64,000 bases of DNA from IMG/VR virus record IMGVR_UViG_3300027740_000003, positions 320,001 to 384,000 of that record; one strand, given 5' to 3'. Shown here one piece after another: positions 20,506 through 59,384 of the stretch (its first letter is position 1; each line of letters starts with the position of its first letter). The DNA is from a virus. Its lineage: Duplodnaviria > Caudoviricetes. The position numbers and the translations under genes are program-made. A model generated the notes under the pieces. It worked only from the letters and a program-made list of their open reading frames with translations, was not told the origin of the DNA and searched no databases.

Positions 20506-21102
20506 TTATTCAATGATATCCTTTATCATCATATTGTCTAGTATCTCTTGTTCAAATTCTTTCCAATCAGGACATAATGCTATTACGGCTATATTATATC
20601 CAGATTGTTCTATTGCAGTTTTTTGAAGTTCTTTTGAAGGGTTCTTTATAAATTGAACAGAATTTCCGTTCTGTTTAACTGCTTCTAATTGTACTTCTTC
20701 GGGAGGATTCTTTATAAATCGAATAGAATTTCCATTTTGTTTAACCGCTAATAATTGCATTTCCTTTGAAGGGTTCTTTATAAGTTGAATAGAATATCCA
20801 TATTGTTTAACTGCTTCTAATTTTATTTCTTTAGAAGGGTTCTTTATATATTGAATAGAATTTCCATTTTGTCTAACTGCTTCTAATTTAGCTTCTTCTG
20901 AAGGATTCTTTATATATTGAATAGAATATGCATTTCGTTTAACCGTTAATAATTGCATTTCCTTTGAAGGATTTTTTATATATTGAATAAAATATACGTT
21001 TTGTTTAATTGCCTTTAAACAACCTGCTTCATTTTCAGGATCAAAACCAATAACTTTTATAATTTCCTTTTTAAGATCCATTTTACTCTTTACTTCCGCC
21101 AA
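20506..21102 (-). CDS. 22-aa tandem-repeat protein (DUF4116-like) with IKDIIE tail
   Basis: Repeats IQYIKNPSxExxLEAVxQNG; ends DNMMIKDIIE. Confidence 0.75.
   Translation of the reverse strand: MAEVKSKMDLKKEIIKVIGFDPENEAGCLKAIKQNVYFIQYIKNPSKEMQLLTVKRNAYSIQYIKNPSEEAKLEAVRQNGNSIQYIKNPSKEIKLEAVKQYGYSIQLIKNPSKEMQLLAVKQNGNSIRFIKNPPEEVQLEAVKQNGNSVQFIKNPSKELQKTAIEQSGYNIAVIALCPDWKEFEQEILDNMMIKDIIE
20799..20930. repeat. 132-bp exact direct repeat, copy 1 (copy 2 at 21747-21878)
   Basis: Identical stretch catattgtttaactgc...gaatagaatatg compared by eye in both repeat-protein genes. Confidence 0.8.
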
Positions 21103-21453: not shown

Positions 21454-22041
21454 TTATTCGATTATATCCTTTATTATCATGTTGTCTAAAATTTCTTCAG
21501 CAAATTCTTCCCAATCTGGACATAACATTATTATTTTAATATCATATTTAGATTGTTCTATTGCTAATTTTTGAACTTCTTTAGAAGAATTCCTTATAAA
21601 TCTAATAGAATTTCCGTTCTGTTTAACTGCTTCTAATTGTACTTCTTCGGGAGGGTTCTTTATAAAAAAAACAGAATCTCCTCTTTGTCTAACAGCTGCT
21701 AATTGTACTTCTTTAGAAGGATTTTTTATATATTGAATAGAAAGCGCATATTGTTTAACTGCTTCTAATTTTATTTCTTTAGAAGGGTTCTTTATATATT
21801 GAATAGAATTTCCATTTTGTCTAACTGCTTCTAATTTAGCTTCTTCTGAAGGATTCTTTATATATTGAATAGAATATGTATTTCGTTTAACCGCTTCTAA
21901 TTGCATTTCCTTTGAAAGATTTTTTATATATTGAACACAATTACCATTTCGATTAATAGCTTCAAAACAAGATAATTCATTATCAGGATCAAATCCTATA
22001 ATTTTTATATACAATTTTTTCAATTTATCTTTAGCTAACAT
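21454..22041 (-). CDS. 22-aa tandem-repeat protein (paralog of 20506-21102) with IKDIIE tail
   Basis: Same repeat unit; ends DNMIIKDIIE. Confidence 0.75.
   Translation of the reverse strand: MLAKDKLKKLYIKIIGFDPDNELSCFEAINRNGNCVQYIKNLSKEMQLEAVKRNTYSIQYIKNPSEEAKLEAVRQNGNSIQYIKNPSKEIKLEAVKQYALSIQYIKNPSKEVQLAAVRQRGDSVFFIKNPPEEVQLEAVKQNGNSIRFIRNSSKEVQKLAIEQSKYDIKIIMLCPDWEEFAEEILDNMIIKDIIE
21747..21878. repeat. 132-bp exact direct repeat, copy 2
   Basis: Matches 20799-20930. Confidence 0.8.
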
Positions 22042-23011
22042 TGTTTTCTTTTTCTAATAGTTCAATCAATTTAGAACAATCATCTGGATAATTTACATTT
22101 ATATTAAATATATGGCTGTTTTGATTGCCAGGCCCATATCCTTTCATTCCCATTTTTGTTCCATTTTTAGTCCCGGGATGAATCTTTAAAACTCTCTCTC
22201 CTTTAATTGTTTTTACCTTAACAGACTTTCCTTTTAAAGCTTCCAACAAAGAAATACTAATATTGGTCTCAATATTTTCCCCATCATCATCTAATCGCAT
22301 ATCCGGATCTTCCTCGACATGAACCAATACCTTTAAAGGACCATAATGATCTTGGTATCTTCCATTAATAAATCCCTGTGATGATCCTAGATAATTTCCT
22401 GCGCCATCAGCTGCAACAACAAACTTGTCTCGTAATGGGAAAGGAAGTTCAAAATCAATTGATACAGATTGTTTAACAGACCCGCCTCCATTACATTTAT
22501 CACAATCTATATTTTCTTTACCAGATCCTCCGCAGAAATTGCATACAATCATTTGTTGCATATTTCCTCTTTGGAATATTTTTCCTCCTTTACCATCACA
22601 ATGTGTACATTTGTTATTTCCTTTATGGTTTCCTTGCCCATTACAAGCGCTGCACTTTACATATTTATCATATGACACAGATCTCTTTGCCCCAACCATT
22701 GCTTCTATAAAAGTAAGACTAACTTCAACAACAGGATCTGGATATCTCTTTGGCCCACGGCTTTGATGAAACGAAGATATATTAATAAAATCTGCTATAT
22801 CTACCGGAAATCCGCCAAAATTACGTTCTGGTCTAGGATTTTCTAGAGTGGTTTTGGCTTCATTTATTTTTTTAAACTTCGCTTCTGCATCTGGAGATTT
22901 GTTTTTATCCGGATGCCATTCTTTTGCAAGTCTACGAAATGCTTGATTAATATCCTCCTTGCTTGCGCCGGGGGAAATACCAAGTTCTGAATATGCTTCT
23001 TCTGGTGTCAT
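22031..23011 (-). CDS. dnaJ: DnaJ chaperone
   Basis: J domain with HPD, four CxxCxGxG repeats, C-terminal substrate-binding domain. Confidence 0.93.
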   Translation of the reverse strand: MTPEEAYSELGISPGASKEDINQAFRRLAKEWHPDKNKSPDAEAKFKKINEAKTTLENPRPERNFGGFPVDIADFINISSFHQSRGPKRYPDPVVEVSLTFIEAMVGAKRSVSYDKYVKCSACNGQGNHKGNNKCTHCDGKGGKIFQRGNMQQMIVCNFCGGSGKENIDCDKCNGGGSVKQSVSIDFELPFPLRDKFVVAADGAGNYLGSSQGFINGRYQDHYGPLKVLVHVEEDPDMRLDDDGENIETNISISLLEALKGKSVKVKTIKGERVLKIHPGTKNGTKMGMKGYGPGNQNSHIFNINVNYPDDCSKLIELLEKENNVS

Positions 23012-23012
23012 A

Positions 23013-23679
23013 TTACCAATTGCCCTTCATCCAATTCTTTAAACTCCATATTTTTCCAGTTTTATGATCTACTACATTATCATCTTTTTCTCGATATGTT
23101 CTAACTTTATCTCCACGCATTCCAGAACCAACTTGGTTCTTCCTATTAGCGTTTCTATTATTAACTAATTCTTCTTTTTTTATAGCTTCTATTTTTTGAG
23201 ACAAAATAGCCAATGCTAATCTTTTACTCTGATATTGAGACTTTTCGTCTATTTTAACAGATATGCCTGTTGGAATATGTGTAGCAACAATACAACTATT
23301 TGTTGTATTTCTGTGTTGACCTCCAGGACCAGAACCTCGCTGATCTCTAATATCTATTTGGGACATATCAAGATTATTGATATTAAACTCTAATGGTTCC
23401 AAAACAGCCACAGTTATTGTTGATGTGTGAATTCTTCCTTTTTTATCTGTTGGAGAGCTTCTTTGGAACCTATGCCCTCCTGATTCATTTTTAAATATTT
23501 CTTTTACATTATTGCCAGAAAACAAAACAGATATAAAACCAGATTTTTTATCTAATAAAGAATAGTCAAAGACGCTCCCGCACTGCAACTTTCACATATA
23601 CTCCAAGCATATCTTCAACTAAGAGTTTTGCATCATCTCCGCCTTCTGCTGCTTTTATTTCTATTACTATCGATTGCAT
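23013..23679 (-). CDS. Class I peptide chain release factor lacking domain 1, expressed through a +1 programmed frameshift (about 221 aa)
   Basis: ATG 23679 with AGGAG SD gives MQSIVIEIKAAEGGDDAKLL...RERL-stop (37 aa, RF-like EIRAGTGGDEA motif); +1 frame continues DYSLL...ESGGHRFQRSSPTDKKGRIHTST...GPGGQHRN...KVRTY. Confidence 0.88.
23565..23580 (-). promoter_or_regulatory. prfB-type +1 ribosomal frameshift site (internal SD, CTT TGA C)
   Basis: Minus strand CGG GAG CGT CTT TGA C; same layout as AGG GGG TAT CTT TGA C of E. coli prfB. Confidence 0.85.
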
Positions 23680-23693
23680 ATTGGTCTCCTACC

Positions 23694-23909
23694 TTATTCT
23701 ATTATATCCTTTATCATCAGATCAATTTCAGACAATTTTTCAAAACAACCATCGTTAACCAATACGCGAAAATATTCAATATCTCTTAGATGTCTAACAT
23801 AATTAAATTCTCTAAATTTATATTCAAACTCATAAAATCTACCAAAATTTGTTAGTTTATACAATATACCTTGATGAAAAGGTATGAAAAAACATATTAT
23901 TAACATCAC
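23694..23909 (-). CDS. Small protein with IKDIIE tail
   Basis: Ends EKLSEIDLMIKDIIE. Confidence 0.6.
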   Translation of the reverse strand: MMLIICFFIPFHQGILYKLTNFGRFYEFEYKFREFNYVRHLRDIEYFRVLVNDGCFEKLSEIDLMIKDIIE

Positions 23910-33162: not shown

Positions 33163-33456
33163 TTATTCTATTATATCCTTAATGATTAGTTCTTCATTTG
33201 ATAACTTTTTAATATATTCTCCCACAAACAATTTGGGCAATATTTCCCACCAATAACGAATTAAAACTGAGCCTGACTTTTTATATTCTTCAATGTAAAC
33301 AAACCAAATACCATTAGTATACATATCTGTGTTGCCATCAATGTTTTTAACAAATCCAATAACATAACAATTGTTTTCCTCAAAAGAAATCGGGCCTCCT
33401 ATATTATAAGTTTTATTACAATAATAAACTCCCCCTAACTCTGGACCCAATATCAT
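33163..33456 (-). CDS. Small protein with IKDIIE tail
   Basis: Ends KKLSNEELIIKDIIE. Confidence 0.65.
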   Translation of the reverse strand: MILGPELGGVYYCNKTYNIGGPISFEENNCYVIGFVKNIDGNTDMYTNGIWFVYIEEYKKSGSVLIRYWWEILPKLFVGEYIKKLSNEELIIKDIIE

Positions 33457-33731
33457 TCAATTATATCCTTAATCATTACTTCTTCATCCGAAAGTTTTTC
33501 CAACACTCCAGATTCTATTAATTGGTTTAATATCCATTGAGTTGTCGTAAAACAATAACAGCTATTTTCTTCTGTTAATATACAATATAGCTCGTCATCC
33601 TCCCAATGGGTTTCTATATAACATTCATTTTCTATCAAAGTCATATTTAAATTAGACTTTAGACACAAGTAAACATTATAAAAATAGGCCTGAACTTCCC
33701 CAGAAAGAATATTCAGGCCCATCTTTTTCAT
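33453..33731 (-). CDS. Small protein with IKDIIE tail
   Basis: Ends EKLSDEEVMIKDIIE. Confidence 0.65.
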   Translation of the reverse strand: MKKMGLNILSGEVQAYFYNVYLCLKSNLNMTLIENECYIETHWEDDELYCILTEENSCYCFTTTQWILNQLIESGVLEKLSDEEVMIKDIIE

Positions 33732-58285: not shown

Positions 58286-58570
58286 TTATTCTATTATATC
58301 TTTAATCATCATTTCTACACAAAGCAAAACGTCATTATTCCCATAATATGAACCCTTGTAAATATAATAAAAAGGATATTTTGTTGACATTGGCCTTAAC
58401 TGAGATATAATCTGAAAAAATTCTATATCAGTATCAGTATCAGAATGATTAATACAACGCATACCACATTTTTTACAATTATAAACTCTCGATTCGTTAG
58501 AATTATCTAAAGGTTTATAATTGTCGTCTATGATAAATTCATGATCCTTCTTTGCTTCTTCCGGCAGCAT
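58286..58570 (-). CDS. Small H/CxxC/C zinc-binding protein with IKDIIE tail
   Basis: DHEF...CKKC...LCVEMMIKDIIE. Confidence 0.7.
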   Translation of the reverse strand: MLPEEAKKDHEFIIDDNYKPLDNSNESRVYNCKKCGMRCINHSDTDTDIEFFQIISQLRPMSTKYPFYYIYKGSYYGNNDVLLCVEMMIKDIIE

Positions 58571-58794
58571 TATTCTATTATATCCTTGATAATATATTCG
58601 TCATATCTAAGACACGGATAATAATCATCTAACAAAAGCCAGTCAGCAATCTTTAATCTTCTCAATACATCTCCTTGATTTTGATCTAAAGAATTTAATA
58701 AAAGAGCATAAAATTTTCCACAATGTATACATTTCCCATCAATAAAACGATGTCTTATTCTGTCTCCCGTTATTTCTATTCTGTTATTTTTCAT
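58570..58794 (-). CDS. Small H/CxxC/C zinc-binding protein with IKDIIE tail
   Basis: RHRF..CIHC...YYPCLRYDEYIIKDIIE. Confidence 0.7.
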   Translation of the reverse strand: MKNNRIEITGDRIRHRFIDGKCIHCGKFYALLLNSLDQNQGDVLRRLKIADWLLLDDYYPCLRYDEYIIKDIIE

Positions 58795-58803
58795 CTAAAT
58801 TCA

Positions 58804-59097
58804 TTATTCTATTATATTTTTTATAATTATCTCATCACAAGAAAGCTCCTGTAATTCATAAGACGTTTCCCATAAAATTGGTTTTCCATATCCAACATAA
58901 AACCCTTGATCTAAAGCTTTCATGTTGTATATGTTTTCTTGCCAATCGTTTTCATTTTTATAAAGACGTAAAACTAAACCACATTTTTTACATTTATAAT
59001 TGATAAAATCAAAATCATAAGCTCTATTACCTAGGGAAAAACCTTGATCATAAAAAATTACAAATTCGTGATCCTTCTTTCCTTCTTCCAGCAACAT
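58804..59097 (-). CDS. Small H/CxxC/C zinc-binding protein with IKNIIE tail
   Basis: DHEF...CKKC...LSCDEIIIKNIIE. Confidence 0.7.
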   Translation of the reverse strand: MLLEEGKKDHEFVIFYDQGFSLGNRAYDFDFINYKCKKCGLVLRLYKNENDWQENIYNMKALDQGFYVGYGKPILWETSYELQELSCDEIIIKNIIE

Positions 59098-59384
59098 TAT
59101 TCTATTATGTCCTTTATAACCATATCAATACACGACATTTGTTGAGCTTCATATGAAAGTTTATATGTTCTAAAATCATAATACCAGCCCTGTTCATATG
59201 CCAAACTGTTATATACATTTTTAATACACAATTCCGGATTTTCAATTACACATAATGTAATTTTACATTTGCTGCATCTATAATAATGCATGTCAGAATT
59301 TTTACATTCGGGAAGATCATATCTTTCAGTTGAAATGAAAACAAAATTATGATCAGCAATGGCACTTTCAGGAATTGGTCTCAT
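59097..59384 (-). CDS. Small H/CxxC/C zinc-binding protein with IKDIIE tail
   Basis: DHNF...CSKC...MSCIDMVIKDIIE. Confidence 0.7.
   Translation of the reverse strand: MRPIPESAIADHNFVFISTERYDLPECKNSDMHYYRCSKCKITLCVIENPELCIKNVYNSLAYEQGWYYDFRTYKLSYEAQQMSCIDMVIKDIIE

Follow-up and report, generated by a model that had tools for sequence, protein, structure and literature searches.

A domain-1-less RF1-lineage release factor in a soil phage, very probably expressed through a prfB-type +1 frameshift

The window, that is, the whole 64-kb stretch of DNA analysed here, covers positions 320001-384000 of a 435,004-bp IMG/VR virus record from a soil metagenome that is rated 100% complete by CheckV. A same-strand run of genes on its minus strand comprises a RuvC-like gene, two small ORFs, a release-factor gene, a DnaJ gene, and a gene for a DUF4116 protein. 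No second gene with a release-factor domain is found in the 435-kb genome. The DnaJ gene (22031-23011, minus strand) is full length, with a J domain, a CXXCXGXG zinc finger, and a C-terminal domain, and it starts one base past the stop codon of the release-factor gene, to which it is probably translationally coupled. This adjacency is peculiar to the present phage (1/83 loci), being seen in none of the 82 related loci. A promoter and terminator scan of the run revealed no terminator-like site and promoter-like sites no commoner than chance.

The release-factor gene spans 23679-23013 on the minus strand and, as read directly from the sequence, is split across two frames. An earlier note on this DNA had described a Shine-Dalgarno (SD) sequence, a 37-codon ORF ending in CGG GAG CGT CTT TGA C, and a continuation in the +1 frame; all of these elements are present on the minus strand and are listed below, the initiation SD, the start codon, and the 0-frame TAA having likewise been read directly.

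23690-23686, minus strand: initiation Shine-Dalgarno sequence AGGAG, 6 nt 5' of the ATG
23679-23677, minus strand: start codon ATG
23679-23569, minus strand: ORF1, in the 0 frame, ATG plus 36 codons, residues 1-37 (MQSIV...RERL)
23646-23632, minus strand: EGGDD, the tip of the helix that ORF1 encodes along with the first strand, aligning with the U1-reading element Gly116/Glu119 of RF1
23579-23575, minus strand: internal SD-like GGGAG, 3 nt 5' of the slip codon
23574-23572, minus strand: spacer CGT, between GGGAG and CTT
23571-23569, minus strand: slip codon CTT, the proposed P-site codon
23568-23566, minus strand: 0-frame stop TGA, followed by C at 23565, which equals the UGA-C context of prfB
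23567-23013, minus strand: +1 frame, 184 codons plus TAA (23015-23013), residues 38-221, with GAC (23567-23565) as its first codon
23550-23548, minus strand: 0-frame TAA, five codons past the TGA
23456-23448, minus strand: Ser-Pro-Thr codons, residues 75-77, at the site of the RF1 PxT / RF2 SPF tripeptide
23324-23316, minus strand: GGQ catalytic motif, residues 119-121

In translation, ORF1 carries EIKAAEGGDDA, while the +1 frame, which includes ESGGHR, holds the remainder of domain 2, domain 3 with the GGQ motif, and domain 4. Read-through of the TGA cannot give the factor because the 0 frame meets the TAA five codons later; both halves of the factor are joined instead by the prfB-style +1 cassette put forward previously, namely an SD, three nucleotides, and CTT TGA C. 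The motif alone is weak evidence, given that GGAG-N3-CTTTGA occurs once in the 64-kb window against an expectation of 0.13. What goes beyond chance is the position of the motif at the junction of two collinear protein halves, together with its conservation in relatives. The GGGAG-CGT stretch is written in codons that this AT-rich phage uses sparingly, CGG and CGT making up 5% and 11% of the arginine codons, and GAG 28% of those for glutamate.

When CTT is joined to GAC, the product is a 221-aa class-I release factor. Pfam detects the RF-1 domain and a PCRF domain that is matched only at positions 101-194 of its 194-position model, and the sequence matches in the PDB begin at residue 107 of Thermus RF1, both of which bear out the earlier claim that domain 1 is absent. 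Every NCBIfam score falls under its cut-off, with 187 bits for RF1, 110 for RF2, and 90 for PrfH; the RF1 model NF001859, with a cut-off of 400, is covered only at positions 104-330. An AlphaFold (AF2) model made from 36 relatives, with a pLDDT of 90.3, superposes on ribosome-bound RF1 with a TM-score of 0.92-0.93 and an rmsd of 1.6-2.0 Å. On the strength of the Pfam and NCBIfam scores, the PDB alignment, and the AF2 superposition, the factor is of the RF1 lineage, not that of RF2, and consists of domains 2-4 without domain 1. This RF1-type nature is the point that was missing from the earlier note.

Bacterial RF1 (prfA) is the best match in both sequence and structure. It shares with the phage factor the GGQ motif, the third-base pocket residues (the Gln of HRFQR and the His-Thr of RIHTS), and the GG(D/E)(D/E) helix tip that reads U1, present here as EGGDD and encoded in ORF1. 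Differences from RF1 lie in the absence of about 105 N-terminal residues (domain 1), in scores far under the equivalog cut-offs, and in the tripeptide loop, which is SPT where RF1 has PxT; most relatives carry PPT. Throughout the short-factor family, conservation extends to domain 2 and to the residues with which RF1 reads codons. The shift site, at codon 38, corresponds to about residue 140 of RF1 and lies in domain 2, past the long helix and ahead of the strand that follows it. Its placement within domain 2 had been claimed before, and the site does fall after the helix bearing the U1-reading tip, not at codon 26 as in prfB. Domain 1 is the RF3-contacting domain of a release factor. It is needed for RF3-stimulated recycling but dispensable for release, and a truncated RF1 works in vivo (PMC1586002), from which it is inferred that the product should terminate at stop codons without RF3.

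Relatives were gathered by an alignment-based scan of viral contigs, which found them encoded on 385 contigs; a single-protein pattern search of viral contigs had given no matches. The two-frame layout is present in 32 of the best 80 viral-contig relatives, amounting to 30 distinct nucleotide contexts on contigs with a G+C content of 0.32-0.64 and with the consensus C-GGAGG-GGT-CTT-T(GA/AG). Within these 30 contexts, CTTT is invariant (30/30), positions -9 to -4 read C-GGAGG in 21-28, the stop codon is TGA in 26 and TAG in four but never TAA, and the following base is C in 16 and G in nine. The SD is not obligatory, since a good one is missing at 4/30 of these sites. A scan of metagenomes, which gave 318 loci, yielded about 38 further distinct sites, every one of them CTT-T(GA/AG); a metagenome relative of 88% identity reads GGGAG TGT CTT TGA C. 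The total stands at about 70 distinct frameshift-type loci on viral and metagenome contigs, with protein identity down to about 45%, and TAA occupies the shift site at none of about 68 sites from the two sources. At 43% protein identity, LR745208.1, a GC-rich 485-kb uncultured phage in GenBank, has a 37-codon ORF1 followed by GGAGG-GGT-CTT-TGA-C.

In a tree with bacterial RF1 as the root, the short factors form one clade with a support of 100, over several deep branches of which the frameshift sites are spread, and the gene of the window falls in a supported 18-member clade. Over the four positions that precede the site column, non-frameshifting relatives vary in both residue and codon, and none of them has GGAGG there. 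Both protein halves are under protein-level conservation. One refutation set out in the earlier note called for contiguous homologs without the motif together with a 1-bp sequencing error. The outcome favoured the note: the motif persists in homologs, and an independent study of groundwater supplied a 1772-bp contig that matches the gene at 86% identity, differing by 99 substitutions but by no indel within it, this independent assembly being free of any 1-bp difference.

In a number of relatives no frameshift is needed, and an in-frame TAG or TGA occupies the very column that holds the stop in frameshift-type genes (L007, TAT TAG A; L020, CTA TGA C; L023, CTC TGA C). A large cluster, L044-L083 (GGC TGA), has a single TGA one codon earlier, at the Trp of the RF1 'GW' motif. 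For the relatives with in-frame stops, ORF-coverage statistics and the merging of same-frame ORFs, applied to 3-kb loci and to stretches of 40 kb, left undecided the choice between code 4/15 and regulated read-through. Two contigs from metagenome-assembled genomes (MAGs), one of Hydrogenophilales (L086) and one proteobacterial (L096), encode frameshift-type short factors in which CTT TGA C is preceded by GGGGG or GGAGC; both contigs probably represent DNA of phages or prophages within bacterial bins. The other cellular matches number 78 and were not all classified singly, those examined resembling ordinary full-length RF1.

The expectation that annotation pipelines would call a truncated gene was met, the database protein being a 191-aa, TTG-started call in the +1 frame. 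Dozens of relatives are stored in the protein database as calls of 165-219 aa that start with the +1-frame signature ..GGVFD/E.., and at least 55 of the best 120 database proteins are truncated calls whose first residues are the cassette read in the +1 frame (..GGVFD/E.., ..FS..). Systematic shortening of these genes by gene callers leaves phage termination factors wrongly recorded in databases.

The cassette is the same as that of prfB, in which an internal SD about 3 nt before CUU and an in-frame UGA followed by C precede a remainder in the +1 frame, the whole being conserved among homologs. The two genes differ in that the phage factor is RF1-type and without domain 1, and has its site at codon 38 in domain 2, where prfB has it at codon 26 in domain 1. 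The stop of the prfB site is TGA in 98.6% of cases or else TAA, and never TAG (PMC12421855), as opposed to about 15% TAG and no TAA in the phage family; prfB also regulates itself, which has not been established for the phage factor.

A prfB-type programmed +1 frameshift is held to be very probable here, with the reservation that no data from proteins, ribosome profiling, or reporters bear on it directly and that the locus is contained in no RNA run. In the prfB case, the peptidyl-tRNA-Leu can slip from CUU to UUU when termination at UGA is slow, aided by an SD:anti-SD duplex three bases upstream (PMC12421855). By analogy, translation would begin at the ATG at 23679 and, after 37 codons, would bring CUU into the P site and UGA-C into the A site, with the internal GGGAG, three bases upstream, pairing with the anti-SD of 16S rRNA. 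Were the UGA to be read, a 37-residue peptide would be released; were the peptidyl-tRNA-Leu to slip from CUU to UUU, reading would resume at GAC and produce the full factor. The yield of factor would then rise as UGA termination slows and, with ordinary release factors, would depend on RF2 activity. Actual shifting by the ribosome is inferred, and the tracking of RF2 activity by factor yield is an inference from the known prfB mechanism that is plausible but untested. SD-like cores stand before 42% of the first ATGs in the phage, compared with 12% at an in-ORF control position; as the phage genes are SD-led, the internal SD should be visible to the host ribosome. The genetic code of the phage is the standard one, with one-strand ORFs of at least 100 codons covering 361 of the 435 kb; TGA closes 41% of the long ORFs, on which grounds UGA is taken to be a working stop in the host. 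The preferred reading, that of a domain-1-less RF1-lineage factor gated by a prfB-type +1 frameshift with its output set by the rate of UGA termination, is considered likely.

Whether the factor acts on its own site is a separate matter, and strict autoregulation is doubtful. On current knowledge, factors with a PxT loop, including PPT, read UAA and UAG, not UGA. Most relatives with a UGA shift site nevertheless carry PPT, a plain PxT, and at least eight exchanges of TGA and TAG at the site came without a consistent change of loop. The label 'autoregulatory' given in the earlier note is therefore unproven, seeing that UGA, the stop at the factor's own site, is not a codon that an RF1-type reader would recognise, and that TGA and TAG were exchanged without a matching loop change. 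In the pooled frameshift-type loci of both scans, SPT loops accompany 13 TGA and 5 TAG sites, and P-first loops 42 TGA and 5 TAG sites. A link between SPT and TAG was suggested by the viral set, in which 3/4 of the TAG sites had SPT (Fisher 0.011) and 3/4 of the independent pairs agreed, but it failed in the metagenome set (SPT, TGA 11 and TAG 2; P-first loops, TGA 20 and TAG 4).

It remains possible, if unlikely, that the SPT factor reads UGA and, once abundant, turns off the frameshift, which would be true negative autoregulation of the RF2 kind. The loop opens with Ser-Pro, as in RF2, and both the stop usage of the phage, in which TGA ends 41% and TAG only 8-9% of the long ORFs, and its tRNA(CUA) amber suppressor would suit a factor that reads UGA while avoiding UAG. 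The sequence and fold, on the other hand, are RF1-type overall with the third-base pocket kept, and the same UGA site goes with PPT in most relatives. The repeated switching between TGA and TAG also speaks against this, for TAG was never found in the prfB motif of 8,164 motif-bearing genomes, a fact taken as the signature of self-regulation (PMC12421855). In an RF2 background, moreover, the change of SPF to SPT abolishes termination (PMC6881298), and the notion of SPT as an omnipotent tripeptide finds no support in view of that report. Omnipotent or altered codon specificity nonetheless cannot be excluded, least of all for SPT, and the reading of the site as an RF2 sensor depends on the assumption that the product does not read UGA, the specificity of SPT being unknown. 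A sensor of one host factor's activity fits better than a strict feedback loop, because RF1-type factors with PPT loops have UGA sites, TGA and TAG have been interchanged, and TAA, the stop read by both host factors, is never used at the roughly 68 sites.

That last observation also weighs against a fixed-ratio attenuator, in which the cassette would do no useful sensing and would hold the factor at a low and more or less constant level, any excess being harmful. B. subtilis does lose fitness when RF2 is over-expressed, and less strongly so when RF1 is (PMC12421855), and the drift of the stop between TGA and TAG would be in keeping with such a role. The lack of TAA and the favouring of a weak UGA-C/G context point, however, to selection for a site read by one host factor, and a shift site made of a stop codon would be kinetically responsive to the termination rate in any case. 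Attenuation without sensing is accordingly judged unlikely. A codon-independent ribosome-rescue factor of the PrfH or ArfB kind, with the frameshift gating its rescue activity, appears more improbable still. PrfH (RFH) likewise has about 200 residues, a GGQ motif, and domains 2-4 only, so the lack of domain 1 is a shared trait, and the genome also encodes a tmRNA. PrfH genes, however, pair with RtcB and are not frameshifted, and no RtcB match is found anywhere in the 435-kb genome. The phage factor reaches only 90 bits with the PrfH model TIGR03072 (cut-off 166.65) and has an RF1-like recognition region; its AF2 model superposes on PrfH structures with a TM-score of 0.72, against 0.93 for RF1, and the family-wide conservation of domain 2 and the RF1 codon-reading residues does not suit codon-independent rescue. 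That there is no recoding at all, the gene being a pseudogene, translated as two separate polypeptides, or an artefact of sequencing or assembly, is very unlikely. Gene callers do return the TTG-started 191-aa ORF, but the one-base break is found, always at one and the same column, in some 70 distinct loci and again in a sample of independent origin; both halves are conserved at the protein level, no start codon of the +1 frame is conserved near the site, and the C-terminal piece alone would be without the U1-reading helix tip.

No account of frameshifting in a release factor of phages or of the RF1 type was found in the literature. The prfB frameshift has until now been described only for RF2; in a 2025 survey covering over 12,000 bacterial genomes, prfA was free of programmed frameshifts and the motif never contained TAG (PMC12421855). 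The present family has the known cassette in viruses, within a different lineage of release factors and at a different place in the gene, and includes variants with TAG. As such, it is a natural experiment on what the cassette requires in order to work, on whether a site of this kind can sense the activity of another factor instead of that of its own product, and on what a release factor without domain 1 does for a phage. The class-I factor of Mimivirus and Megavirus is also a viral termination factor that needs recoding at internal stops and follows a bacterial-style regulatory logic; it differs in being an eRF1/aRF1-type protein of eukaryotic viruses that employs both frameshift and read-through at other signals, with the recoding shown experimentally (PMC3521657). 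Lak, crAss-like, and Jade phages similarly bear RF1 or RF2 beside suppressor tRNAs (bioRxiv 10.1101/2021.08.26.457843), but frameshifting is nowhere mentioned in that preprint on recoded phages, and the phage studied here follows the standard code for nearly all of its genes.

Further genes that bear on stop codons lie elsewhere in the genome, which has 20 tRNAs, among them a well-formed tRNA(CUA) amber suppressor, one odd tRNA-like call, and a tmRNA. Three of these, all outside the window, are as follows.

c[148687-148760]: tRNA(CUA)
c[79260-79333]: tRNA-like gene
c[97812-98149]: tmRNA

The tRNA-like gene is called by ARAGORN with a two-base anticodon, and the tag of the phage tmRNA is ANDNADLTAAAA. 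The tRNA(CUA) is present despite the standard code and the low share of long ORFs that end in TAG. Five genomes of relatives have tRNA(CUA), tRNA(UUA), or two tRNA(UCA), often with a tmRNA. The closest viral-contig relative (G005, the record of L005) has a tRNA(UUA) ochre suppressor at c[451588-451662]. In G010, the record of L076, two tRNA(UCA) of ordinary length and a tmRNA are found at 139122-139296 and 141433-141807; this genome has a PPT factor with a UGA shift site, and TGA ends 57% of its long ORFs. These phages bring several tools that act on stop codons. No connection could be established between the suppressor tRNAs or tmRNA and either the loop type or the codon of the site; tRNA(CUA), tRNA(UUA), and tRNA(UCA) occur alike in SPT, PPN, and PPT genomes.

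A joint reading of these elements, in which huge phages run a termination system of their own, is speculative and rather unlikely to hold as a whole. If it were true, a short, RF3-independent factor, with the loop variants PPT, SPT, and PPN differing in codon specificity, would be switched on by a stop-codon sensor of the failure of one host release factor, and the factor, suppressor tRNAs, and tmRNA would together re-set the working stop codons during infection. On the same tentative reading, the SPT factor would read UGA and spare the UAG that is decoded by the phage's amber suppressor.

Two further observations concern neighbouring genes. In L082, a 72-aa ORF resembling IF-1 (infA) lies directly 3' of the short release-factor gene. 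In the window itself, nine genes end, on the minus strand, with near-identical 24-nt stretches that encode (M/I)IKDIIE plus a stop codon, where none would be expected by chance. The positions of these tails are given below.

20506-20529, minus strand: 24-nt tail
21454-21477, minus strand: 24-nt tail
23694-23717, minus strand: 24-nt tail
33163-33186, minus strand: 24-nt tail
33453-33476, minus strand: 24-nt tail
58286-58309, minus strand: 24-nt tail
58570-58593, minus strand: 24-nt tail
58804-58827, minus strand: 24-nt tail
59097-59120, minus strand: 24-nt tail

The genes look like a multi-copy family with a fixed C-terminal tail; one member has DUF4116 repeats, and two members flank the pair formed by the release-factor and DnaJ genes.
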